From the IMG/VR virus record IMGVR_UViG_2778261035_000005: a DNA stretch of 64,000 bases. The stretch is one strand, 5' to 3'. Positions 3,260 to 24,504 of the stretch are shown in pieces. Every line of letters begins with the position of its first letter. The stretch's first letter is position 1. The translations under genes were made by a program, and so were the position numbers. The notes under the pieces were generated by a model. The model did no database searches. It was not told the DNA's origin and saw only the letters and a list, made by a program, of their open reading frames with translations. The DNA is from a virus. Taxonomy: Duplodnaviria > Heunggongvirae > Uroviricota > Caudoviricetes.

Positions 3260-4441
3260 ATGAGCCTTTATGTTATATCAACATTTAGGTTGGTAACAAT
3301 ATTGCCTGTTAAAAGTGGAATTATCGTGAGCGAGCTGAAAGAGTTAATTACCGAATTAGATTTTGAACAATGGTTGGACACTGAAGGTATCGTTTATCGA
3401 CGTGGAGGCGTGAGTACTCGCGGTCGTGAAGTGAATATCAAGGAGTGTCCGGTATGCGGCAGCTCCAACTGGAAGGTATATTTCAATCTGACCAGTGGCG
3501 TCGGTAAATGCTTCGCTGGTGATCATCCCGAAGAGATTCAGTTCAATAAGCTGGTCTTCCTCAAGCACTACAGCGGCAAATCACGACGACAGTTCGAGGA
3601 ATATGTGCAGAACGCCCTTCTTTCCCAGGGGTGGGCACCAAAGAAAGAAGAGCTAGTGCTTGCAAGCACAGTCGAGTTAGAGGGGCCAGTTGCACTCCCT
3701 CGTCATTACGAACTTCCTATAGATGGCCGTCTTCCAGACTATCTGGTTGAACGAAATATATCGCCTGAAATGGCAAAGTATTTTGACCTACGATACTGCG
3801 TCGAAGGTAAGCACGCCTATGTAGATCCGTATACAGATCAGGTTAAAGGACAGATATTCGATATGCGAATACTGATACCGGTTTACGATCTGGATGGGGT
3901 AATGAAGACATTTCAGGGACGAGACATTACCGGTACAGCAGAACGCCGCTACCTCTTTCCTATGCAGCTTCCAGCTTCAGGTAAGTTTCTCTACAACGGC
4001 TATAATGCAGTCGGCAAACAGACTGTAGTTGTCTGTGAGGGGGCGTTCGATGTTATGGGGGTTAAACGAGCTATTTTTGACGAAGAAACATTACGTGATT
4101 ACGTGGAACCAATAGGAACGTTCGGGATGCATCTATCTGGTAACACCACTCAGGATGCAGAAGATCAGTTAGGCGCGTTCCTGACGCTCAAGGCGCGTGG
4201 GTTACGTAATGTGATCATGATGTGGGATAGTGAAAAGCAAGCTATACGAAACACTATGGCCGCAGCCAGGCGACTGACCAGTATCGGTCTTAATGTGAAA
4301 ATTGCATGTTTGGGCGAGGAAGGACTCGACCCCGGCGATGCGACCCCGGGGCAGATTATCAAAGCCTACTATTGCGCAAAACCTTACTCACGACAGCTTG
4401 AACTTTTAAGCAAGGTAAAAGGCATAGCAGCATTAGTTTGA
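3260..4441 (+). CDS. DNA primase (zinc-ribbon + TOPRIM)
   Basis: CPVCGSSNW...GKCFAGDH zinc motif; VVVCEGAFDVMGV and MWDSEKQ TOPRIM-like; start moved to ATG 3260 after conserved gaaaaacac context. Confidence 0.7.
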   Translation: MSLYVISTFRLVTILPVKSGIIVSELKELITELDFEQWLDTEGIVYRRGGVSTRGREVNIKECPVCGSSNWKVYFNLTSGVGKCFAGDHPEEIQFNKLVFLKHYSGKSRRQFEEYVQNALLSQGWAPKKEELVLASTVELEGPVALPRHYELPIDGRLPDYLVERNISPEMAKYFDLRYCVEGKHAYVDPYTDQVKGQIFDMRILIPVYDLDGVMKTFQGRDITGTAERRYLFPMQLPASGKFLYNGYNAVGKQTVVVCEGAFDVMGVKRAIFDEETLRDYVEPIGTFGMHLSGNTTQDAEDQLGAFLTLKARGLRNVIMMWDSEKQAIRNTMAAARRLTSIGLNVKIACLGEEGLDPGDATPGQIIKAYYCAKPYSRQLELLSKVKGIAALV

Positions 4442-5578
4442 ACCAGTATTAGTCACGTACACATTGACCGAAAATGATTTAACTTCTGTGTTGAAGTTGT
4501 CAGTCATTACCGCGAGGTAGGCATTCTTGGTATCTCTGAATTGCTTCAGTATGATTTGAACGTTATCGGTGCAAACAAACGAGGTAGCCAGATTGCCTCC
4601 TTTCTCTGAAAAATCCTTCAGGAAGGTGCAGTCAACTTTGCCATCATTAGCGGTGAAGGTAGCATCATCACCCTGCCAGGTAAATGTAGCGTTAACGCCC
4701 TTATCAATGGATTTAGCAATAAGTCGCTGGGTGGCGGATTTTGTTTTGGCTTTGGAAGCCGGCGCTCGATATTTGCCGCTTTCTTTCAGTTCTGCAATGT
4801 AATCACAGCCATTTTTATCTTCTTTATCACAAGCAGCCTGATAAAGCTCAGCTGCTTTTTTATAGTCTTTTTTAACCCCTTCACCATACTCATACATAAT
4901 GCCAAGATTTGTCATGGCATCGGCGTTTCCGAGTTCAGCAGCTTTTTTATACCACTTAATTGCTTCGGCATCGTTGCGTTTAACACCTAAACCGTCATCG
5001 TATAAGGTGCCTAATGCGAACATGCCATCTGAACTACCTTGATCCGCCGCTTTTTTGTAATAAGTAAAAGCTTTTTTATAACTCTTTTGTACACCTTTAC
5101 CATATTGGTAATACGCACCAAGAAGGTAGCTAGCTTTAACATACCCGGCATCAGAGGCTAGATTGAAGTATTTAATGGCGAGCGCATGATCTACTTTACC
5201 AAGCATCCCCTTTTGATAAATAGCACCAAGATTGTTATAGGCTCTACCTTCACGAGCATCTCCCGCAAGTTTGTAGTACTCAACTGCTTTATTTAAGTCT
5301 TTATCTACACCCTCGCCAAATGTGTACATAACCCCAAGTGCATAATATGCTACTTTGTCTCCCTTTTCTGCAGCGAGATCAATCCACTTCTTGGCCTCAA
5401 CTACATCCTTATCAAAACCATTGATACCATCAAAATAATTTGTCCCTAACTCACTTTGTGCTGCGGTATCCCCTGCGGTAGCGGCTTCTATCAGCGTTTG
5501 TTTATTGTCTGCGTTAACGAATCCAGAGCTAAAAAGCAAAGTTAATGCCAGCAACGATGAAGATTTTATGTATTTCAT
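4433..5578 (-). CDS. secreted Sel1-like repeat (TPR-like) protein
   Basis: signal peptide MKYIKSSSLLALTLLFSSGFVNA; repeated A..W/Y..AA..G...A...LG..Y..G.GV..D units; only minus-strand gene in its neighbourhood. Confidence 0.7.
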   Translation of the reverse strand: MKYIKSSSLLALTLLFSSGFVNADNKQTLIEAATAGDTAAQSELGTNYFDGINGFDKDVVEAKKWIDLAAEKGDKVAYYALGVMYTFGEGVDKDLNKAVEYYKLAGDAREGRAYNNLGAIYQKGMLGKVDHALAIKYFNLASDAGYVKASYLLGAYYQYGKGVQKSYKKAFTYYKKAADQGSSDGMFALGTLYDDGLGVKRNDAEAIKWYKKAAELGNADAMTNLGIMYEYGEGVKKDYKKAAELYQAACDKEDKNGCDYIAELKESGKYRAPASKAKTKSATQRLIAKSIDKGVNATFTWQGDDATFTANDGKVDCTFLKDFSEKGGNLATSFVCTDNVQIILKQFRDTKNAYLAVMTDNFNTEVKSFSVNVYVTNTGSN

Positions 5579-5811
5579 ATTTTTTGTTCTGTTGATATAG
5601 GATGAACAGTTTAGACGCGGCAAGTGTCAAGTGTGCGAAAAATGGTACTTAAATTTAGTTAATATGTCAGCTTTGTTGATTTAGTTTATGGTCGGTAAAG
5701 TTACTAGGAAACTAATAACCATAAGAAATAGTACGTCATTTAATTATTGTGGCACTGCTCGTGTTTTGATTAACTAATACCTGCGATAAATATAAATAAA
5801 GGGAAGCCAAC

Positions 5812-9160: not shown

Positions 9161-9359
9161 ACGGGAGAAGGAAACACTTTATGAAATCAGTAAGTGGCCG
9201 GAGTTCCCTGAGTACTGGAAGCCTAAAACGCGGGCTAAGTTAGAGCGGTTAGGGTTGGTTGCAAACGTTTCTGAAACGAGGGGGTCGGCCAACTACCAGT
9301 TAACTGATAAAGGGAAAGTATTGCTACAGCAATTAGTAGAATCAGGAGCGTTAAAATGA
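9144..9359 (+). CDS. hypothetical protein
   Basis: ORF track; aaggag SD 9 nt upstream. Confidence 0.45.
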   Translation: MIVLSKREKETLYEISKWPEFPEYWKPKTRAKLERLGLVANVSETRGSANYQLTDKGKVLLQQLVESGALK

Positions 9360-9508
9360 TTCCATACATCTCATTAGCTTTTATGGGTGGCTTTCTTATC
9401 GGCTTCGGCATCTGTCGTGATTTAATTAAGCAGGAACTTAAAACCAAAACACTGTGCATCGGAAAGCGTGTGTATCGGGTAGTTCATGAAACAAAGGTTA
9501 GAAAATGA
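9356..9508 (+). CDS. small membrane protein (50 aa, not in ORF track)
   Basis: ATGA overlap with upstream stop; MIPYISLAFMGGFLIGFGIC; start codon lies inside repeated AATGATTCCATAC element. Confidence 0.4.
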   Translation: MIPYISLAFMGGFLIGFGICRDLIKQELKTKTLCIGKRVYRVVHETKVRK

Positions 9509-10147: not shown

Positions 10148-10574
10148 AAAGCGGCGACGTAGCCCGGCTGGTATGGTTAGCCAGCACACAACGTTGAGGC
10201 CATTACATTTTTATCAATTCTAAGGTTCTATTCACAGAGATACCGGCGAGCGTTGATATGTAACATGTTGGGCAAACATTCAATCGGAGTAGTGGCCTCA
10301 ACGTTGTGAAGACAGGATAGTTGTGTAGGTTTAACCACTGTTGCCATTGGTGCCTGTTTTCACAACAAATGATTCCATACATCACATTGTATAAATTACA
10401 AAGTAAGTGCAGTCCTCAGAAACATCATCTACTTAAAGATTTTGCCTTCTACTATTGAGCGAAGTCGAAAGCGTCTGGCACTAACGAAAAGTGCAAGTAG
10501 CGGTGCGTTTCCTGGCAGAAACTAAACCGTCGCGATTGGCACTGTTGAGTAATAAATACTGGCAGTGCCGAATT

Positions 10575-10649
10575 GATGGTGTAGCTCAGCGGTAGAGCAG
10601 TTGGCTGTTAACCAACTGGTCGGTGGTTCGAATCCACCCACCATCGCCA
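10575..10649 (+). tRNA. tRNA-Asn (anticodon GTT)
   Basis: cloverleaf by hand: acceptor GATGGTG/CACCATC, D-stem GCTC/GAGC, anticodon loop CTGTTAA, T-loop TTCGAAT, CCA end; differs from host-type tRNA-Asn. Confidence 0.85.
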
Positions 10650-10651
10650 AT

Positions 10652-10727
10652 GCCGGTTTAGCTCAGTTGGTAGAGCACCTGCCTTGTAAGCAGGATGTCA
10701 GCGGTTCGAATCCGTTAACCGGCACCA
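10652..10727 (+). tRNA. tRNA-Thr (anticodon TGT)
   Basis: acceptor GCCGGTT/AACCGGC, anticodon stem CCTGC/GCAGG, loop CTTGTAA, T-loop TTCGAAT, CCA. Confidence 0.85.
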
Positions 10728-10940
10728 ACACAACAGGAAAGAGCATTGAGAACCGCCGAGACTGCCCTGTTTGAAGCGTAAGTCCGTGCAAACGTCATAC
10801 AGTGCTCTTTTCGTTGTGGTGAATGCGGCTAAGCGCACGCGGGGAAATGGTTATATTGATCCTTTGTGATGACTATTGGCTCCGTCCACGGTGGATAACC
10901 AGCCAAAGGACACCGGGAAGCACCCGGCACCACAACAATT

Positions 10941-11027
10941 GGAGAGTAGGGAGCATGGTGCTCAAGCGGTCTTGAAAACCGTCCCATTGCGCAAGCGATG
11001 ATGGTTCGATTCCATTACTCTCCGCCA
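10941..11027 (+). tRNA. tRNA-Ser (anticodon TGA), class II with long variable arm
   Basis: acceptor GGAGAGT/ACTCTCC, anticodon loop CTTGAAA, long variable arm, T-loop TTCGATT, CCA. Confidence 0.75.
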
Positions 11028-11182
11028 GACACAGCGTTGAGCGGTTTGGCCTTTTAATCACCCAGATTAAGACTCCGCTAACATAAACCAGACCGCTCAA
11101 CGCTGTGATAGACAATTACGGCAGACGTTCTTAACCATAGCTTGCTAACATCCTAGCAACACTTTTTTTCAGCGCAAAATTC

Positions 11183-11206
11183 AAAGGGGCTTCGGCCCCT
11201 TTTTGG
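11183..11206. terminator. bidirectional intrinsic terminator
   Basis: aaaggggc-ttcg-gcccc-tttttgg hairpin flanked by A-run and T-run; between tRNA cluster and convergent minus-strand gene. Confidence 0.7.
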
Positions 11207-11211
11207 CTGGG

Positions 11212-12492
11212 TTAATTAAAACCGAATGAATCAAGTTCTGCTTTTAATTTATCGACCATTTTTTCAACTTCAACCACAATTTCGCCAATCACCTTTTCTT
11301 TGTGTTGATTAGAGCTAAGTTCAAAATAGGCGTTATATAACGCATAACGAGACAGAAAATTTCTAATCTCATTAGCGGGTCTAATGGTGTAGCCATCGGT
11401 TAACACGATATCGGTCTGTCTAGAGTGCTTCTCGTTGAGTTTTATTAGCCGCTTTATCTGTTTTTCATCCTTGAGCACTATCACTTTGTTAGCTGCAATT
11501 TCAAGCTCCCAGCCGACAAAATAACGCAGCGTAGAATTTAATTTAGCCACTTCCTCGGCTGCAATTTCCATTTTCAGCTCAATGTAGTTTCGCATATGCA
11601 TAGGTAGGTCATTAAATCTTTGCAGCAAATGTTGTCGGCAGGGGTTGTTGTAAGACCAAAGAACTGCAAACGTAAGCCTATGATAACAGCTTATCGCATT
11701 GGTATTACAGGCCGAATCACCAACAATCATGCGATCAACATAAAACTCTACGTCTTTTTGGTATTCTTTATTGAATATATCAGCGGCATAGGTGTCCAGG
11801 TAATGAACTTTAGATATTGCATCTTCAAAGAAAAGTTCATTTTCGAAGAAGTTGTATTTGTTCAGGAGACGATAAAGTTTCTTTGCGTCGTAGGTTTTGC
11901 TATTGTCGACATTAAGACCAAAAATAGCAATCAGCAGACTTACTTTTGGACTAATGCTGTTGCGCAGTTGTTCTATGTAAGATCTCTTTTCACTATCCGC
12001 AGATGACGGCAGATAGAAGTCTTTATCTACATAATTTAGAATTAAAATAATGTGGTTAACATACTTAATATAAACAGGGTTTTTTGTTGCATAGTAATAA
12101 ACGCCCTTGACGACTTTTATATTCAATTTCAAATTGTACTGACTATCATCCAGTAAGGTTTTGTTAACATCCTCAAGTAATTTATTATGCTGTTCAAGTA
12201 ATATGCCGTACCATTCCTTAAAAGAAGATTTTTTCATTTCAAGAAGCGAAGCCGCCGTCAGCCTGGTCGCTCTCATTGCCGCCTTTGCACTATGCCTTGC
12301 CTCATAAGCGGCCCATGCTGTGGCTAAAAAGGCAAGTGAAGTAGCAAGCGTACCTATAACCTCTACGTTTTCCTTGACGGTATCCCAGAAAATAATCATC
12401 ACTGTCCCAAGTATGAGGATTAACAAAACAGGCATTTTATCAGTGTCTTTGGTTAATTTTGAAACTGAATGATACCTAATCGACCATACCAT
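11212..12492 (-). CDS. hypothetical membrane-anchored protein, A+T-rich (candidate exclusion/defence cargo)
   Basis: ORF track; two N-terminal hydrophobic helices then ~350 aa soluble domain; strongly A+T-rich versus neighbours; alternative ATG at 12435. Confidence 0.55.
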   Translation of the reverse strand: MVWSIRYHSVSKLTKDTDKMPVLLILILGTVMIIFWDTVKENVEVIGTLATSLAFLATAWAAYEARHSAKAAMRATRLTAASLLEMKKSSFKEWYGILLEQHNKLLEDVNKTLLDDSQYNLKLNIKVVKGVYYYATKNPVYIKYVNHIILILNYVDKDFYLPSSADSEKRSYIEQLRNSISPKVSLLIAIFGLNVDNSKTYDAKKLYRLLNKYNFFENELFFEDAISKVHYLDTYAADIFNKEYQKDVEFYVDRMIVGDSACNTNAISCYHRLTFAVLWSYNNPCRQHLLQRFNDLPMHMRNYIELKMEIAAEEVAKLNSTLRYFVGWELEIAANKVIVLKDEKQIKRLIKLNEKHSRQTDIVLTDGYTIRPANEIRNFLSRYALYNAYFELSSNQHKEKVIGEIVVEVEKMVDKLKAELDSFGFN

Positions 12493-12641
12493 TTCAGCTA
12501 GTTTAAAGCTGTCTTGCCGGTTCTAGTGTGTCAACCTCACAAAGCCATTTCTGCTTAGTAACCAAACACATTAAATAGGTAATGACTCACCTATTCATTT
12601 TAGCTATAGTCACGACACTTACTCACTTGAAAGGACTCTAT

Positions 12642-12767
12642 ATGGGAAACAAACGTAAACAGGCGCGTCGCGCAGCTCGTCAGGCAGTGAAGTCAAAGCC
12701 ACGCATCCACGGCTACGAAATTGACACAATCATCGTTAATGAACAGCAGTTGCACGAGGTGAAGTGA
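12642..12767 (+). CDS. small basic protein (41 aa)
   Basis: aagga SD 6 nt before ATG 12642; MGNKRKQARRAARQAVKSKPR; stop overlaps next start. Confidence 0.4.
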   Translation: MGNKRKQARRAARQAVKSKPRIHGYEIDTIIVNEQQLHEVK

Positions 12768-13012
12768 TGAAAGTCGTTATCTACGGACGAGATAACTGCT
12801 CATACTGCAAACGTGCGGTCGAGCTGGCGAAGCAACTAAAGGGACATGGCTACGGTGATTATGAGTACATAAACATCACCACTGCCGGTATCGATAAGGA
12901 AAAACTTAGCGAAATTGTTGGTAAACCGGTAGAGACTATCCCCCAGGTGCTGATCGATGGCCAGCCGATTGGCGGATACACAGAGATGGCATCTTTCGTA
13001 AGTTTCTTATAA
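12767..13012 (+). CDS. glutaredoxin / NrdH-like redoxin
   Basis: VVIYGRDNCSYCKRA CxxC motif, small thioredoxin-fold length. Confidence 0.75.
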   Translation: MKVVIYGRDNCSYCKRAVELAKQLKGHGYGDYEYINITTAGIDKEKLSEIVGKPVETIPQVLIDGQPIGGYTEMASFVSFL

Positions 13013-13196: not shown

Positions 13197-13751
13197 TCAA
13201 TCTTCCCTTTGTTTTGGGTAGTGTTGTGTTCGTATCGCATAGGAAGCTCCGTCATTTAAATAAGTTAGGCCACGCTCTTGTGTAAATCTCTTCACATATC
13301 TCTTGTATGTGGCCATCAGTTCTTCGCGTTCTGCCGCAAAGAATAAAATCTGTATGCCTTCATTGTCGGCAACTTTGAGCATTAAGTCAACTAAAGTACC
13401 GTAAAGGTATTGAAGTTCACCTAAAGTAAGATTAAAAGACCCTTCGGGTTTGGCAAATACGTTAATTGGCTCTTCCGCTCCAAGAGCGACATTCTGGAGC
13501 TGTTCTTGCTGCCTGTCAAGTTGAATCATGTCCACAAAACTAACGACAGATACACACAACCCATAAACATCAGCACCTAACATATTATGCATAGTTTCTG
13601 CGGCAACAGGATCTAAAGAAGGAGGGCAAAAGACTAAACGGTATCTAGCCTTACGAGCTTCATTGCCAGAGAAAACAAAGTCTATATCTAAATATGACAG
13701 ATCACCCGGCAATGAAGCCAAACCAGGTGTAACCAACTTATGCAAGTGCAT
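13197..13751 (-). CDS. hypothetical protein
   Basis: ORF track; agaggga SD upstream of ATG on minus strand; divergent from recombinase gene. Confidence 0.5.
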   Translation of the reverse strand: MHLHKLVTPGLASLPGDLSYLDIDFVFSGNEARKARYRLVFCPPSLDPVAAETMHNMLGADVYGLCVSVVSFVDMIQLDRQQEQLQNVALGAEEPINVFAKPEGSFNLTLGELQYLYGTLVDLMLKVADNEGIQILFFAAEREELMATYKRYVKRFTQERGLTYLNDGASYAIRTQHYPKQRED

Positions 13752-13887: not shown

Positions 13888-13920
13888 AATGATTCCATAC
13901 CTACTATGTATGGAATCATT
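13888..13920. other. lox/dif-like recombination core site candidate (13-bp inverted arms, 7-bp spacer)
   Basis: AATGATTCCATAC-CTACTAT-GTATGGAATCATT perfect inverted repeat 98 bp upstream of recombinase ATG. Confidence 0.5.
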
Positions 13921-14018: not shown

Positions 14019-15122
14019 ATGAAAAATAGCTTTGACAGAGCACGCGCTGCGGAGAACACCTCAAAAGAGGCGATTGAGTATCTCGAAAGAGCATCTCAAA
14101 TGCAGGCCGTTATGATCTCCCAGGTCAGCAATGACATGAGATTCTCGGACGCATTCATGTTATTCACTCGCTTATCTCTGCTGATAACAAGACGTCGGCC
14201 AGAGATCGCTGTTCATTGTATTTTGATACATGTTTTGCCGCACATTGCCGATGTAAAAGTAAGTGATATTAATAGGTTCATGGTGAACCAACTGGTCAAC
14301 CCACTAATACTGGATGGCAAAATTGTTATGGGTCGCCGCGTTTTCTCTCTGATGAAGCAGTTCCTCAGCTGGTGCGCCTTCCAGGGGATGATCGACGTGT
14401 CACCGTTAAACGATATGTCACTTAACAAAGTTGCCGGTGGCGCAAAGCCCACACCTCGCGAGCGGAAGCTAACCGACGCAGAGGTATGGGTGTTCTGGAA
14501 TATATGGGACTACTTCAATGTGTGTGCTGGTACAAAATGGGCGGCCAGGCTATGTCTTGTATCCGCAAGACGACCTGACGAAGTACTGCGGGCTAAAAAA
14601 AGTGAGTTCAACCTCCAGCGTGGGGTTTGGAATCAAGGCAAGAGAAACAAATCAGCCCGTGAGCATTCTCTGCCTTTAAGCACATTAATGCGCACATGCA
14701 TTGAAGAGTTATTCGAATATGGTAAAGGCAGCCAGTGGCTTGTGCCTTCGAATAAAAAAATCGGGAAAGATCTTCCGATGTCTAAAGTGGCAATAGCCCA
14801 GGCATTACGCCGTATCCTGGAACGACCAGAACTGATGGAGCTTGAGCCATTTACACCACGAGATTTGCGTCGTACTGCGCGTAGTTACTTCCCAGCATTA
14901 GGCATAAGCCAGGAGGTATCACGTAAAATCATGAACCACAGTCTTGAGGGGATAGATCGGGTCTACGACCGGCACGATTATATGGACGAGATGCGAGACG
15001 CCTTAGAAAGTTTCTCGACGTACATCGCATCAATCGTAGAGCAACCGGATTTAGACGAAATTGACCACAAATTCAAGGGAGATCGTCTATCGACAGAGCT
15101 TATTCGTGTAAATTTTTCATAG
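14019..15122 (+). CDS. tyrosine site-specific recombinase (integrase/resolvase family)
   Basis: C-terminal catalytic region PRDLRRTARSYF...HSLEGIDRVYDRHD (R, HxxR, Tyr); N-terminal ~120 aa lacks an obvious arm-binding domain. Confidence 0.75.
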   Translation: MKNSFDRARAAENTSKEAIEYLERASQMQAVMISQVSNDMRFSDAFMLFTRLSLLITRRRPEIAVHCILIHVLPHIADVKVSDINRFMVNQLVNPLILDGKIVMGRRVFSLMKQFLSWCAFQGMIDVSPLNDMSLNKVAGGAKPTPRERKLTDAEVWVFWNIWDYFNVCAGTKWAARLCLVSARRPDEVLRAKKSEFNLQRGVWNQGKRNKSAREHSLPLSTLMRTCIEELFEYGKGSQWLVPSNKKIGKDLPMSKVAIAQALRRILERPELMELEPFTPRDLRRTARSYFPALGISQEVSRKIMNHSLEGIDRVYDRHDYMDEMRDALESFSTYIASIVEQPDLDEIDHKFKGDRLSTELIRVNFS

Positions 15123-19711: not shown

Positions 19712-22700
19712 CTTCTCTCTTGGGGAGTCGGCTCTAAAAGCAGAAAACGCGGTGAAGATTGCCAGAGAAGCTGGCTACACCGCTGTAATTTCGGCAGATA
19801 GCATGAATATTGCGAGTGTTATTCCACTACAACGTGCCGCTGGTGACGACATGGCGGTTATTTGTGGTGTGAAACTAAACATTGTTGATGATCCCACATA
19901 CGAGCACCGGGCTAAACTTGCTAAAGAGTCTATGGGATGTATGGAATCATTAGAGCGTGGGCGGAACTACTCCTTTACCGCTCTAATTAAAAATGAGCAG
20001 GGATATCGAGACATCTGCGAACTAATGACGGCGGCCAACACACGAGAACAGTTCTACTTTGTACCGCGTCTCTCGCTCGAACAGTTGGTTTCTACATATG
20101 CCAAAGGCAACATCATCCTGCTCACTGCCGACATCGGTAGCGTGTTCCAACGCAACGATTTTGCAAAAATCATAAGCTCACTGATTACAGCGGGTGGAAA
20201 AGACAACTTCTATAGTGTGGTTTATCCGCACCCTACCCCATTCTACGACCAGATTAACGTCCGGGCGATGAAAGTCGCCAGCGCACTGAAAATAGAGCCA
20301 GTAGCGTTCTATCCCGCTTATTACGAATCGATCGACGATGCAGACATTAAAGACATTGCGCACATGGTTACGAACAACATCAAAATCGACCAGCCGCATC
20401 GTCTGCGTATCCCCCACCAGCGAGATAACGCCGTCAATGGTCGCCGCCATCTCCTTGAGGCGCTGAAAGCCTTCTCCGTTCGCATGGATGTGCCGGTAAC
20501 AGCTGCAATGGCCTCAACAACGCAGGATACCATTATCGATGCCTGCACATGGCGCTGGCATGAATTGCCACCAGCACTGCCAAAGATGGCAGACGACGAG
20601 CCTGCAACGCTGATGAAACTGGCCGTTGCTGGGCTGCGTAAACGTCTTACCACAAAAGAGTTTGGCTACACACCACCGGCTTCTGAGAACAGGGTTTATG
20701 TTGAGCGACTTAAGTACGAAATGGACACGCTTACTCGCCTGGGATTTTGTGGTTACTTCCTGATGGTACGCGATCTGATGAATCACAGCCGTGAAACTGG
20801 CATTCCTGTCGGGCCTGGTCGTGGTTCCTCCGCTGGCTCTTTGGTGGCATGGTGCATAGGCATAACCAACGTCGACCCTATCCGTCACGGTCTTCTGTTT
20901 GAACGTTTCATCAACCCTGAGCGTCTCGACTTGCCAGATGCGGACTTGGACTTCAGCCAGGCACGTCGCCATGAGGTGATCGAGTATCTGAATGAACGCT
21001 ACGGCGAAGATTACGTTGCAGGCATTCCGAACTTCACCTACCTGGGCGCGGCCTCTGCACTACGTGACACCGCTCGTATTTATGGTGTGGAGTCCGCAGA
21101 TATGGCGGTATCAAAAGAACTGAAGAACGTCGAGGATGATAGCCTTCCATTGGAAGAGCTGCGCGAACAACTGGCAAGCCTCGACAAATACGCGACAAAA
21201 TATCCTGATGCATTCAATGCAGCCTGCAAGTTACAAAGCCTTATGCGTGGCTATGGTAGACATGCGGCAGGGATGATCGTAGCAGGTGTTCCTCTGACAG
21301 AACGAACACCGGTTGAACGACGTGGTGACGCGCGTTGTATCGCATTTGACAAGCGTTACTGCGAGGCTATGGGCCTAATTAAGCTGGACGTACTTGGCCT
21401 GGCGACTCTCGATTTGCTCGATAGTGCAAAACGCTACATTAAAGAGAACACAGGTGAGGATATCAATCTTGATGCCATTTCTCTTGAAGATCGCAAGGTG
21501 CTGGATGGTTTTGCTGCTGGGTACACTCAAGGTGTTTTCCAGCTTGAATCAGGCCCAATGCGCAAGCTGCTTAAAGATTTAGGTGGTGGAATTGAGCCAA
21601 TGAGCTTTAAAACGGTCGTTGCTACGACTGCGCTCTTCCGGCCGGGGCCAATTCAGTCAGGCATGTTGGATGATTATGTTTCTGTCGCCAAAGGCTTTAT
21701 GACGCCGGAATCATTACACCCCGTTCTTGATGAACTTACCGCAGAAACAAATGGCGTGATTCTTTATCAGGAACAGACGATGAACGCGACTCGATTGCTT
21801 GCGGGCTTCACAATGGCTGAAGCTGACGGCGTTCGTAAAGCGATCGGCAAAAAAGACATGGAGAAAATGAAGAGCATGGGTGAGAAGTTCATCGTTCAGG
21901 CTCAAGCTGGCTGGATAGACGTTGAGCTGGAAGATGGCACTACACAGCGCATTCACCGTGCGGAACATTTTAAATGCGAAGACGGAACACTGAAAACTGT
22001 CGAAGAGGCGCTTGAACACGGCGCAAAACTACCTATAAACGCAGTACGCGTGACAGCGTCACACCCAGGGCTATCAGAGATGAAAGCGAAGGAGATCTGG
22101 ACCGCATTCGAAAAAAATGGTGCCTACCAGTTCAACAAATCACACTCTGTTGCTTACTCCTTGATCAGTTATCAATCTATGTGGTTGAAAACTCATTATC
22201 CCGCAGAGTTTTTCGCTGCTGCTCTCACTATTCTTGGCGAAGATAAACACCAGGGGCTGGTTAAAGATGCGCTGACCTATGGTATTCGCGTATTGCCACC
22301 AGACGTTAACGTGTCATCCAACCGAATCGAGATCCGCACGCTTGAAGATGGCAGCCAGGTGCTGTATGCGCCCTTCTCTGCTGTGAAGGGGTGTTCTGAG
22401 AATGGCTGCCAAGCCATCATGAGAGCGCGAGAAAAAGTTGGCGGCAAATTCGAGTCACTGGCGCAATTCGAAGAAGCTGTCGAGAAACGTGCCTGTAATA
22501 GTCGAGTGCGCGAATCGCTGCAAAAAGTAGGGGCGTTTGCATCCATCGAGCCAGGTAGTCTGCCAGCAACTGATCCAGAGCGCCTACGCGACCAGGCTGA
22601 ATTGATGGGAAACCTTGTCATAGACGCAGTTAAAGCCTCACGTCCGTTTGAGATGAACCCCAAACGTTCGGCTGAGATTAACGTGCTCATGACACGGATG

Positions 22701-23377: not shown

Positions 23378-24361
23378 CTATCTTGAATTAGGGGCTTTCT
23401 CTATAATTATTCGATTCAGAATATGATTACGATCACTGTATGGTTCGAAATGTTCTGCAATCGAGTATGAACCGACACTACGTGCGACCACATCTTCAAA
23501 ATATTCAAGGATTTTAGGTAGATACTTTTCATAATTTTGTGAACAAATCGACACTACAGGATCGAATTCTACTAATCGACGCTTTACACGTATATGGTTA
23601 TTTATTTTTTCATATTCATTCATCATAGAGTTCAAGTCTGGTACTACCCGCTCAGGGCTACACAGGTAGGTGCTGCGGTCATACTCGTCTCCGAATTTAT
23701 CAAGAGGAACACCTATCTCTAGCAACGTCTTGTTTACTCGCTTTGCAAGCTCAATTATCTCTTTATCTTCTTCTGTAAGCCACATGTCGACCCACTTTTG
23801 TTTGTCTGCCCATTCAGACAGATAATCATCCTTATTGAAAGTTACAGGAGCACATCCAGAGTCACTTCTTAATGCTTTATCCTTTATTTTAGAAATTGTT
23901 TTTTTATCTAAATGCTTCCAATAAATAGCAGGTTCGTCTAATTCATTATCATCGTGTAGGCATATCAAAACAATTACCACAGGAAAATCACAACTTCCCC
24001 AATAGGTTATATTTTTATAAGGTATTTGTACGCTTAACCTTCTCTTCATTTTGCGTGAGGTGGTTTTTATCTGAACGCCGATAAAAAAACCTGTCGAAAG
24101 ATTATTTTCATATATTTCAACCTGAGCATCCAATCCCATATCAATATCTAGCAATCGACAAGGCCATCTGAAATAACGAGAAATCCAATAGGCAAACAAG
24201 TACTCTCCAGCGTGTCCATCCGCACTGGTTTTCGGATATGTCATACCTTCAGTTTTATTCTTTTCTGCCGCTGGCTTTACAGACTTAGCTTTTGGGGGGA
24301 GGGCTGTTTTTTTAGTCGGCACTGACTTTGTTGCTTTGACTTGTTTGTTAGCCTTATCCAT
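23378..24361 (-). CDS. A+T-rich protein with Lys/Pro-rich N-terminal tail and PD-(D/E)xK-like nuclease core (DUF4365-like by eye)
   Basis: N-terminus KANKQVKATKSVPTKKTALPPKAKSVKPAAEK; core GEYLFAYWISRYF...LLDIDMGLDAQVEIYE...GVQIKTT; track start is TTG, ATG at 24361 used. Confidence 0.5.
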   Translation of the reverse strand: MDKANKQVKATKSVPTKKTALPPKAKSVKPAAEKNKTEGMTYPKTSADGHAGEYLFAYWISRYFRWPCRLLDIDMGLDAQVEIYENNLSTGFFIGVQIKTTSRKMKRRLSVQIPYKNITYWGSCDFPVVIVLICLHDDNELDEPAIYWKHLDKKTISKIKDKALRSDSGCAPVTFNKDDYLSEWADKQKWVDMWLTEEDKEIIELAKRVNKTLLEIGVPLDKFGDEYDRSTYLCSPERVVPDLNSMMNEYEKINNHIRVKRRLVEFDPVVSICSQNYEKYLPKILEYFEDVVARSVGSYSIAEHFEPYSDRNHILNRIIIEKAPNSR

Positions 24362-24504
24362 TGGTTTTATTCTCAATTTGCTTTGCTCGGTGTGCCTCCT
24401 GATTCTGCACCTTAGCGCCGATACTGTCTACCGCCAATCATGACAGTAAAGCTCTATTTGTTTGATATAATCAGATACACGAAAGTAAGTTTGAGCATAT
24501 CAAT

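Follow-up and report, generated by a model that had tools for sequence, protein, structure and literature searches.

A Remote Relative of Lactococcal AbiC in an Exchangeable Slot of an SSU5-Like Escherichia coli Phage-Plasmid

Results

The Gene and Its Coding Sequence

The 64,000-nucleotide stretch of Caudoviricetes DNA analyzed here (IMG/VR record IMGVR_UViG_2778261035_000005; the window) can be assigned to an SSU5-like phage-plasmid of E. coli. This assignment follows from its plasmid and phage identities and from its gene set: the region of interest matches the 110-kb E. coli plasmid pWP4-S18-ESBL-07_2 at 100% identity, the DNA around it shares 98% identity with Escherichia phage Cyrano and shows a more distant relationship to Salmonella phage SSU5, and the neighboring genes encode a DnaB-like helicase, a primase, a ligase, GrxA, a tyrosine recombinase, CobT-like and AAA proteins, and DnaE. 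Beside a tRNA cluster, this element carries a gene for a putative membrane protein that, by sequence comparison, appears to be a very divergent and previously unannotated relative of the lactococcal AbiC proteins; its homology to the Pfam putAbiC family is remote but robust.

The gene was flagged in an earlier, sequence-only reading as an A+T-rich, minus-strand gene next to tRNAs, and these descriptions hold. The open reading frame (ORF) listing contains the flagged 426-codon ORF at 11212..12492, and the majority of the long ORFs in the window lie on the plus strand. Its G+C content is 37.6%, compared with 45.4% for the whole window, and an equally low value occurs in 0.08% of 1,281-nt stretches; all alleles of the gene that we found are similarly A+T-rich (G+C, 31 to 38%). 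The stop codon lies 185 nt from the cluster of tRNA-Asn, tRNA-Thr, and tRNA-Ser genes, which converges on the gene from the plus strand (Table 1).

The proposed length of 426 residues is probably too great. The ORF contains in-frame ATGs at codons 1, 20, and 32, the last of which is the RefSeq start in the identical plasmid and would remove the first membrane helix. In an alignment of 27 homologs, all proteins below ~64% identity open with "MP" and a hydrophobic run that matches Met20; this includes every distant homolog, at 32 to 60% identity, and the most distant homologs have no Met at the Met32 position. The allele on pTHO-010-2 provided a second comparison. Its coding part has ~83% nucleotide identity to the window gene (dS, the synonymous substitution rate, 0.44). 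The 160 nt upstream of Met20 are identical at 157 of 160 positions (98%), with zero differences over the 57 nt that would form codons 1 to 19. Because these 160 nt are so much better conserved than the coding part, they behave as noncoding backbone. On these comparative grounds, the Met1 start of the flagged ORF and the RefSeq Met32 start were both rejected in favor of Met20, which is most likely the true start and gives a protein of 407 residues. None of the three ATGs has a convincing Shine–Dalgarno sequence ahead of it, and Met20 is accordingly an inferred start. Promoter-like matches in the gene region were no commoner than in shuffled sequence and were not used.

Eight nucleotides past the stop codon lies a G+C-rich hairpin bordered by runs of A and U, AAAAA GGGGC CGAA GCCCC UUUGAAUUUU, which was read from the sequence and its fold and resembles an intrinsic terminator; a consensus terminator scan did not list this hairpin. 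It is located inside backbone DNA that is common to relatives without the gene, looks bidirectional, and could also end the plus-strand tRNA transcript.

Table 1. Features of the AbiC-like locus (positions in the window; residues of the 407-residue form)
Feature	Position	Strand	Basis
tRNA-Asn, tRNA-Thr, and tRNA-Ser cluster; convergent neighbor and slot landmark	10575..11027	+	ARAGORN, Rfam
Intrinsic terminator	~11176..11204	-	Sequence and fold
Exchangeable cassette: gene, upstream region, phoH remnant	11205..12777		Homology breaks
Most likely coding sequence, AbiC-like membrane protein, 407 residues from Met20 plus stop	11212..12435	-	Homolog starts, dN/dS
Fast-evolving C-terminal half, residues 210-407, helices and a small beta-sheet	11215..11808	-	dN/dS, identity
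putAbiC core, residues 124-199: helix, loop, two helices	11839..12066	-	PF16872 match; AbiC alignment
Membrane helix 2, residues 25-44, rich in small residues	12304..12363	-	Hydropathy; AlphaFold helix 24-96
Membrane helix 1, residues 2-17	12385..12432	-	Hydropathy 2.25; AlphaFold helix 3-15
19 additional codons Met1-Lys19, probably 5' leader or promoter DNA	12436..12492	-	Lacking in homologs below ~64% identity
phoH remnant, divergent neighbor, not part of the system	12642..12743 (within 12582-12767)	+	RefSeq PhoH pseudogene in the identical plasmid

The Protein Belongs to the putAbiC Superfamily

The earlier reading recognized no motif in the protein. A match does exist, to the Pfam family putAbiC (PF16872, "putative phage abortive infection protein"; an 80-position model with a gathering cut-off of 22 bits), which aligns with residues 124 to 199 at 20.1 to 20.2 bits (E values, 8.4e-4 to 9.1e-4). 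This sub-threshold match was confirmed transitively, through full-length relatives. A word-indexed search returned 70 homologs, down to 34% identity, all of them unnamed "hypothetical" proteins, and in PHROGs the only strong match was to phrog_18168, a group with no known function. Among 1.84 billion cluster representatives searched with a profile, only 91 matched at E ≤ 1e-3, and the family is therefore small.

Within this set, putAbiC was detected at E ≤ 0.01 in 8 of 27 close family members and at E ≤ 1e-3 in 51 of 61 wider relatives (best E value, 1.2e-13). When 10 relatives were scanned singly, nine exceeded the Pfam cut-off, scoring 32 to 45 bits on PF16872 at roughly the position of the match in the window protein. 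The same nine (P0087-P0109) matched the family profile with E values of 2.7e-41 to 4e-22, several of them over nearly the full length of the profile. Finally, a hidden Markov model (HMM) was built from 53 distant relatives without the window protein and its close family. This model matched the window protein with 142.7 bits across residues 3 to 402, compared with 11.7 bits for the best of 2000 shuffles. Thus, membership of the window protein in the putAbiC superfamily is robust, even though its own score misses the curated threshold.

The Abi_C/AbiJ HEPN RNases (PF14355) carry a similar name and were considered and rejected: the window protein has no PF14355 match at E ≤ 10, and no conserved HEPN R-x(4-6)-H motif was seen on reading of the alignments. 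The paper on a Staphylococcus aureus "Abi_C" RNase concerns PF14355/AbiJ, a different family. The Pfam name putAbiC itself was not found in the literature searched.

Comparison with Lactococcal AbiC and with AbiP-Type Proteins

AbiC was described in 1992 and shows no recognizable fold. As a reference, we used the gene of Lactococcus plasmid p275A, which matches the PADLOC AbiC model at 4.3e-133, and built a family alignment around it. An hhalign comparison of the broadened window-family alignment with this AbiC alignment gave a probability of 85% (E value, 5.8e-6) over 60 columns. In addition, the 53-relative HMM scored genuine AbiC proteins at 16 to 18.7 bits in the same core. The putAbiC core of the window protein aligns to lactococcal AbiC residues ~190 to 250, and on our reading of the alignments, the conserved residues Y125, Y153, and R158 pair with AbiC residues Y195, Y223, and R228. 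AlphaFold models of the two proteins (mean predicted local distance difference test scores of 82.4 for the window protein and 78.1 for lactococcal AbiC) were compared by their secondary-structure strings. Both have two N-terminal helices, the second of which enters a very long helix (residues 3 to 15 and 24 to 96 in the window protein; 16 to 36 and 62 to 120 in AbiC), and in both the aligned core consists of a helix, a loop, and two helices.

The window protein resembles lactococcal AbiC in three respects: It is encoded by a single A+T-rich gene on a mobile element, with no conserved partner; its N terminus has two membrane helices, the second of which extends as a long helix, with a helical domain outside the membrane after them; and it appears to share a helix-loop-helix-helix core of ~60 residues with aligned Tyr and Arg positions. 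The two proteins also differ. The similarity is seen only through intermediate relatives, the window protein has 407 residues compared with 338 to 344 in AbiC, and its core lies ~80 residues past the membrane helices rather than ~120. It also adds a variable C-terminal half of ~200 residues with a small beta-sheet. Its host is Gram-negative and its carriers are temperate phages, whereas AbiC is found on dairy plasmids. AbiC (also called Prf; PF16872 putAbiC and PADLOC AbiC in the databases) reduces production of the major capsid protein (PMC13064643).

AbiC, with its two membrane helices and extramembrane domain, has been grouped with AbiP on the basis of predicted structure in a 2026 review (PMC13064643). 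AbiP and PdpSau are Abi factors that consist of one membrane-anchored protein with a cytoplasmic domain, the layout predicted for the window protein, and PdpSau, which comes from an S. aureus prophage, shares its prophage-borne location. PdpSau is AbiP-like; upon infection, it depolarizes the membrane and stops phage replication (PMC10127798). The PADLOC AbiP model gave weak matches in 6 of the 61 wider relatives and none in the window protein. AbiP and PdpSau differ from the window protein in having one membrane helix rather than two and a nucleic-acid-binding or OB-like domain; no such Pfam domain was detected in the window protein.

A Conserved Membrane Hairpin and a Rapidly Evolving C-Terminal Half

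The two N-terminal transmembrane helices proposed in the sequence-only reading are borne out. In the numbering of the 426-residue form, hydrophobic stretches lie at ~21 to 36 (Kyte–Doolittle mean up to 2.25) and 43 to 63 (up to 1.49), and AlphaFold modeled both as helices. The hydrophobicity of helix 1 is preserved in all homologs, and in the AlphaFold model helix 2 continues directly into the long juxtamembrane helix. The loop between the two helices is short and acidic and the segment after helix 2 is rich in Lys and Arg. Therefore, by the positive-inside rule, the remaining ~360 residues are predicted to be cytoplasmic.

Comparison with the 83%-identical allele of pTHO-010-2 gave a ratio of nonsynonymous to synonymous substitution rates (dN/dS) of 0.33 overall, which is distributed very unevenly along the protein. 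The ratio is 0.04 for codons 1 to 70, which encode the hairpin and juxtamembrane helix, and 0.22 for codons 70 to 210, which contain the putAbiC core; it rises to 0.55 for codons 210 to 300 and 0.48 from codon 300 to the end, the two parts of the C-terminal half. Mean identity within the family follows the same pattern, with 80% in the hairpin and 40 to 48% in the C-terminal half, reaching its minimum of 40% at the C terminus. The residues that are invariant in the family are W17, T32, T39, A40, W41, A43, and A46. Because the hairpin is conserved well beyond mere hydrophobicity, its sequence argues for a role beyond anchoring. We propose that the C-terminal half (residues 210 to 407) is the specificity or sensor part of the protein.

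This pattern bears on whether the protein might function in strict superinfection exclusion, blocking entry of incoming phage DNA at the inner membrane and sparing the host, as is reported for P22 SieA and T4 Imm. Such a role would suit a protein that a temperate element encodes and that forms a hairpin in the inner membrane, and that the hairpin is the most conserved part suggests the membrane as the site of action; the mechanism of AbiC itself has, moreover, never been resolved. Still, lactococcal AbiC, AbiP, and PdpSau are all reported to act after entry, and the rapid evolution of the cytoplasmic half points to a target recognized inside the cell. To our knowledge, the entry-blocking proteins described so far are small and have no 360-residue cytoplasmic domain. 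We therefore regard a DNA-entry block as unlikely.

The selection data also speak to the possibility that the gene is a decaying or inert passenger, in which the AbiC homology is real and the branch has lost any relevant protective activity. A lactococcal AbiC-like protein with 38% identity to AbiC failed to protect against any of the lactococcal phages tried (PMC11381338), and the phoH remnant adjoining the window gene is a sign of local decay. The reading frame, however, is intact across more than 70 homologs spanning 34 to 100% identity, the dN/dS values of 0.33 for the whole gene and 0.04 for the hairpin are those of a constrained protein, and a dedicated terminator is present. An inert passenger is thus very unlikely in our estimation.

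The Gene Occupies a Swap-Prone Slot and Recurs in Unrelated Elements

The sequence-only reading called for presence/absence mapping in related elements, and this revealed alleles that are swapped between near-identical flanks, replaced by other genes, or missing. Homology to the E. coli plasmid NZ_CP113488 ends at 11204 and restarts at 12778, and homology to phage Cyrano ends at 11207 and restarts at 12748, with flanks of 96 to 98% nucleotide identity in both cases. In this slot, NZ_CP113488, whose integrase is 99.7% identical at the protein level, carries an allele that is only 37% identical to that of the window, and Cyrano carries a gene of the Gp49/Sf6-gp66 family. The Klebsiella pneumoniae plasmid pKP4823_2, whose aligned flank pieces show 68 to 94% nucleotide identity, holds a third allele (40% identical to the window allele and 38% to that of NZ_CP113488) with an intact phoH beside it. 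In Klebsiella phage pJN2-26 (aligned flank pieces, ~71 to 95% nucleotide identity), the slot contains a 304-residue minus-strand ORF, which we tested as a possible relative and found to be unrelated. In phage SSU5, which aligns at ~76% and only upstream of the tRNAs, the gene is absent and the whole segment is missing.

The distribution of the gene is correspondingly patchy. Any allele was found in 140 plasmids of PLSDB, compared with 836 for the backbone integrase; among complete E. coli genomes, the integrase is present in 252 and the allele group of the window in eight. Megablast and tblastn searches of 50,697 phage records gave no match to the gene, indicating that it is absent from deposited SSU5-like phage genomes, Cyrano and SSU5 among them.

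Relatives of the window have an intact phoH, then the Gp49/Sf6-gp66 family gene, then grxA. Since only a short phoH remnant is left in the window compared with these intact relatives, its lineage has lost ~1 kb beside the AbiC-like gene.

The earlier reading placed the gene within a repeat-delimited segment, which is accurate only in part: a 13-nt motif does occur on either side, at 10368 and at 13888/13908, while the part that is exchanged, 11205-12777, is shorter, and a search of its ends turned up no repeats. The motif, AATGATTCCATAC, is present in five exact copies compared with 0.1 expected (9355-9367, 10368-10380, two within 13888-13920, and 19939-19951). Paired as a 13+7+13 palindrome, two of the copies lie ~100 bp upstream of the tyrosine recombinase gene (14019..15122) and look like a lox- or dif-like recombination site or an operator. 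The single 13-nt arms are probably the repeats to which the earlier reading referred; as cassette boundaries they were rejected, given that they do not coincide with the exchanged segment.

The gene stands alone in all eight contexts that are long enough to show neighbors, with no neighbor common to them, and where the neighbors are phage genes, it sits on the opposite strand. Outside SSU5-like elements, a P2-like prophage carries one homolog (P0049, 57% identity to the window protein), flanked by the genes for the baseplate spike and for tail completion. Another (P0064, 46%) is in the early region of a lambdoid prophage, between the replication module and RusA/antiterminator genes. Two distant, putAbiC-positive relatives lie beside ddrB/darA in a P1-like element (P0087, 22%) and in a defense-type island with AAA_15/HNH, DndB, DUF4145, and integrase genes (P0089, 20%). 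The homologs P0047 (59%) and P0019 (79%) are alone in chromosomal stretches with long intergenic gaps. Carriers thus span four unrelated types of temperate phage: SSU5-like, P2-like, lambdoid, and P1-like.

In these features the slot resembles the accessory "moron" and defense hotspots of temperate phages, such as those of P2 and P4 (PMC13586616), where A+T-rich genes sit in a set place among conserved genes, on the strand opposite to their neighbors, and are swapped between near-identical elements; one homolog lies between the spike and tail-completion genes of a P2-like prophage. In contrast to those hotspots, the slot between the tRNAs and phoH/grxA is not named as a defense hotspot in the literature searched. 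In the accessible part of a survey of SSU5-group phage-plasmids, other defense systems are named and AbiC is not among them.

The contexts also weigh on a role for the protein in the biology of the phage-plasmid itself, for example as a membrane-bound protein that controls lysis or induction, as an anchor that ties replication or partition to the membrane, or as an addiction toxin. In favor of such a role, the gene is close to replication genes, tRNAs, and a recombinase, and it is under purifying selection. Against this, most elements that share the backbone lack it, among them the inducible phages Cyrano and SSU5, and it is found at unrelated positions in four unrelated phage types as well as in nonphage islands. 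There is also no conserved adjoining partner gene, which makes a toxin–antitoxin pair unlikely. An own-biology role is accordingly, in our view, highly improbable.

A Putative Abortive-Infection or Exclusion Factor

The sequence-only reading suggested a superinfection-exclusion or abortive-infection gene. That suggestion gains support, with the function still putative, from the putAbiC homology, the two-helix architecture, the lone-gene contexts, and the allele-swapping slot. We consider it moderately probable that the protein acts on its own as an AbiC/AbiP-type factor for abortive infection or exclusion, accessory cargo that would protect the lysogen, and thereby the element, from other phages. 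The three alternatives discussed above, namely strict entry exclusion, an own-biology function, and inert carriage, are ranked as less likely than such an AbiC/AbiP-type defense.

Several observations weigh against this assignment. The window protein falls narrowly under the PF16872 cut-off (20.1 versus 22 bits), and PADLOC and NCBIfam scans of it gave no match. The AbiC link is transitive and, as far as the alignments indicate, restricted to ~60 residues; the narrow window-family profile found nothing when compared with the lactococcal AbiC alignment. Of the remote-homology search and structure prediction that had been proposed, the former revealed the putAbiC homology and the latter matched no known fold. 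Foldseek searches against BFVD and against the Protein Data Bank (PDB) returned nothing at E ≤ 0.001, and the fold searches overall gave nothing beyond generic helical bundles and no match that would indicate a biochemical activity; a sequence profile search of the PDB likewise gave nothing meaningful. No conserved catalytic motif was identified. For AbiC itself, no function could be assigned from structure and the mechanism is unresolved (PMC13064643), and the inactivity of the 38%-identical AbiC-like protein mentioned above counts here as well.

If the protein is an AbiC/AbiP-type factor, its layout suggests how it might work. The two-helix hairpin would anchor it in the inner membrane and direct the helical domain of ~360 residues to the cytoplasm. 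There, the fast-evolving C-terminal half would sense a product of the infecting phage, either nucleic acid or protein, and the conserved hairpin, juxtamembrane helix, and putAbiC core would execute the response. This response may consist of membrane depolarization, an arrest of phage replication and of the synthesis of late proteins, or both, as reported for AbiC, AbiP, and PdpSau. Both the division into sensor and effector and the effect on the membrane are inferred by analogy with those proteins.

A more far-reaching proposal, which we put forward tentatively as possible, is that these proteins form an enterobacterial branch of the AbiC superfamily, so far unrecognized, in which one chain is both sensor and effector. 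In such a protein, the highly conserved hairpin would be an effector that disrupts the membrane when triggered by phage, and the hypervariable cytoplasmic C-terminal half would set which phage is sensed, with alleles shuffled through a dedicated slot of SSU5-like phage-plasmids (tRNA cluster to phoH/grxA) and its equivalents in P2-like, lambdoid, and P1-like phages. Were this true, these genes would be a common currency of phage-versus-phage competition that current defense finders have missed.

The gene is best described as a divergent new member of the known and mechanistically unsolved AbiC kind. A Gram-negative AbiC branch in elements compatible with E. coli K-12 would make the family tractable, because E. 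coli offers far better genetics and phage collections. The gene is also a marker of a swap-prone slot in SSU5-like phage-plasmids, elements that are frequent in clinical E. coli, Klebsiella, Salmonella, and Shigella. As the gene is invisible at PADLOC, NCBIfam, and Pfam thresholds, counts of defense genes in such elements are probably too low. Finally, the natural allele series, in which a conserved hairpin is combined with divergent C-terminal halves, could be used to map the parts that determine specificity and response.

Other Features near the Locus

Within the tRNA cluster, a 182-bp stretch between tRNA-Thr and tRNA-Ser (10742-10923, plus strand) is absent from phage Cyrano. A sub-threshold Rfam match to the small RNA STnc100 (10795-10963; 44.1 bits versus a cut-off of 47; E value, 2.4e-7) overlaps this stretch, and at the same site pTHO-010-2 has a tRNA-Tyr and an odd "tRNA-OTHER." The cluster is flanked by two long hairpins, at 10187-10308 and 11030-11107, with 20-nt arms of related sequence (CACA[G/A]CGTTGAG...), which may be processing or termination signals. 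The segment 11020-11215 folds far better than shuffled sequences (z = -6.1).

Farther away, positions 4433-5623 (minus strand) hold an accessory Sel1/TPR-repeat gene (Pfam Sel1, 2e-52); pTHO-010-2 is without it and has a different plus-strand gene at that position. Just past dnaE, an ORF at 23378-24376 (minus strand) encodes a DUF4365 domain (9.6e-16) and is a candidate accessory or defense-type gene. Between grxA and the recombinase gene, 13197-13751 (minus strand) encodes a 184-residue protein with no Pfam or NCBIfam match. This ORF is kept in Cyrano. In pTHO-010-2 a fimbrial operon takes its place, and in pKP4823_2 other genes do, among them a YafO toxin and a microcin immunity gene; its position is a second variable slot.

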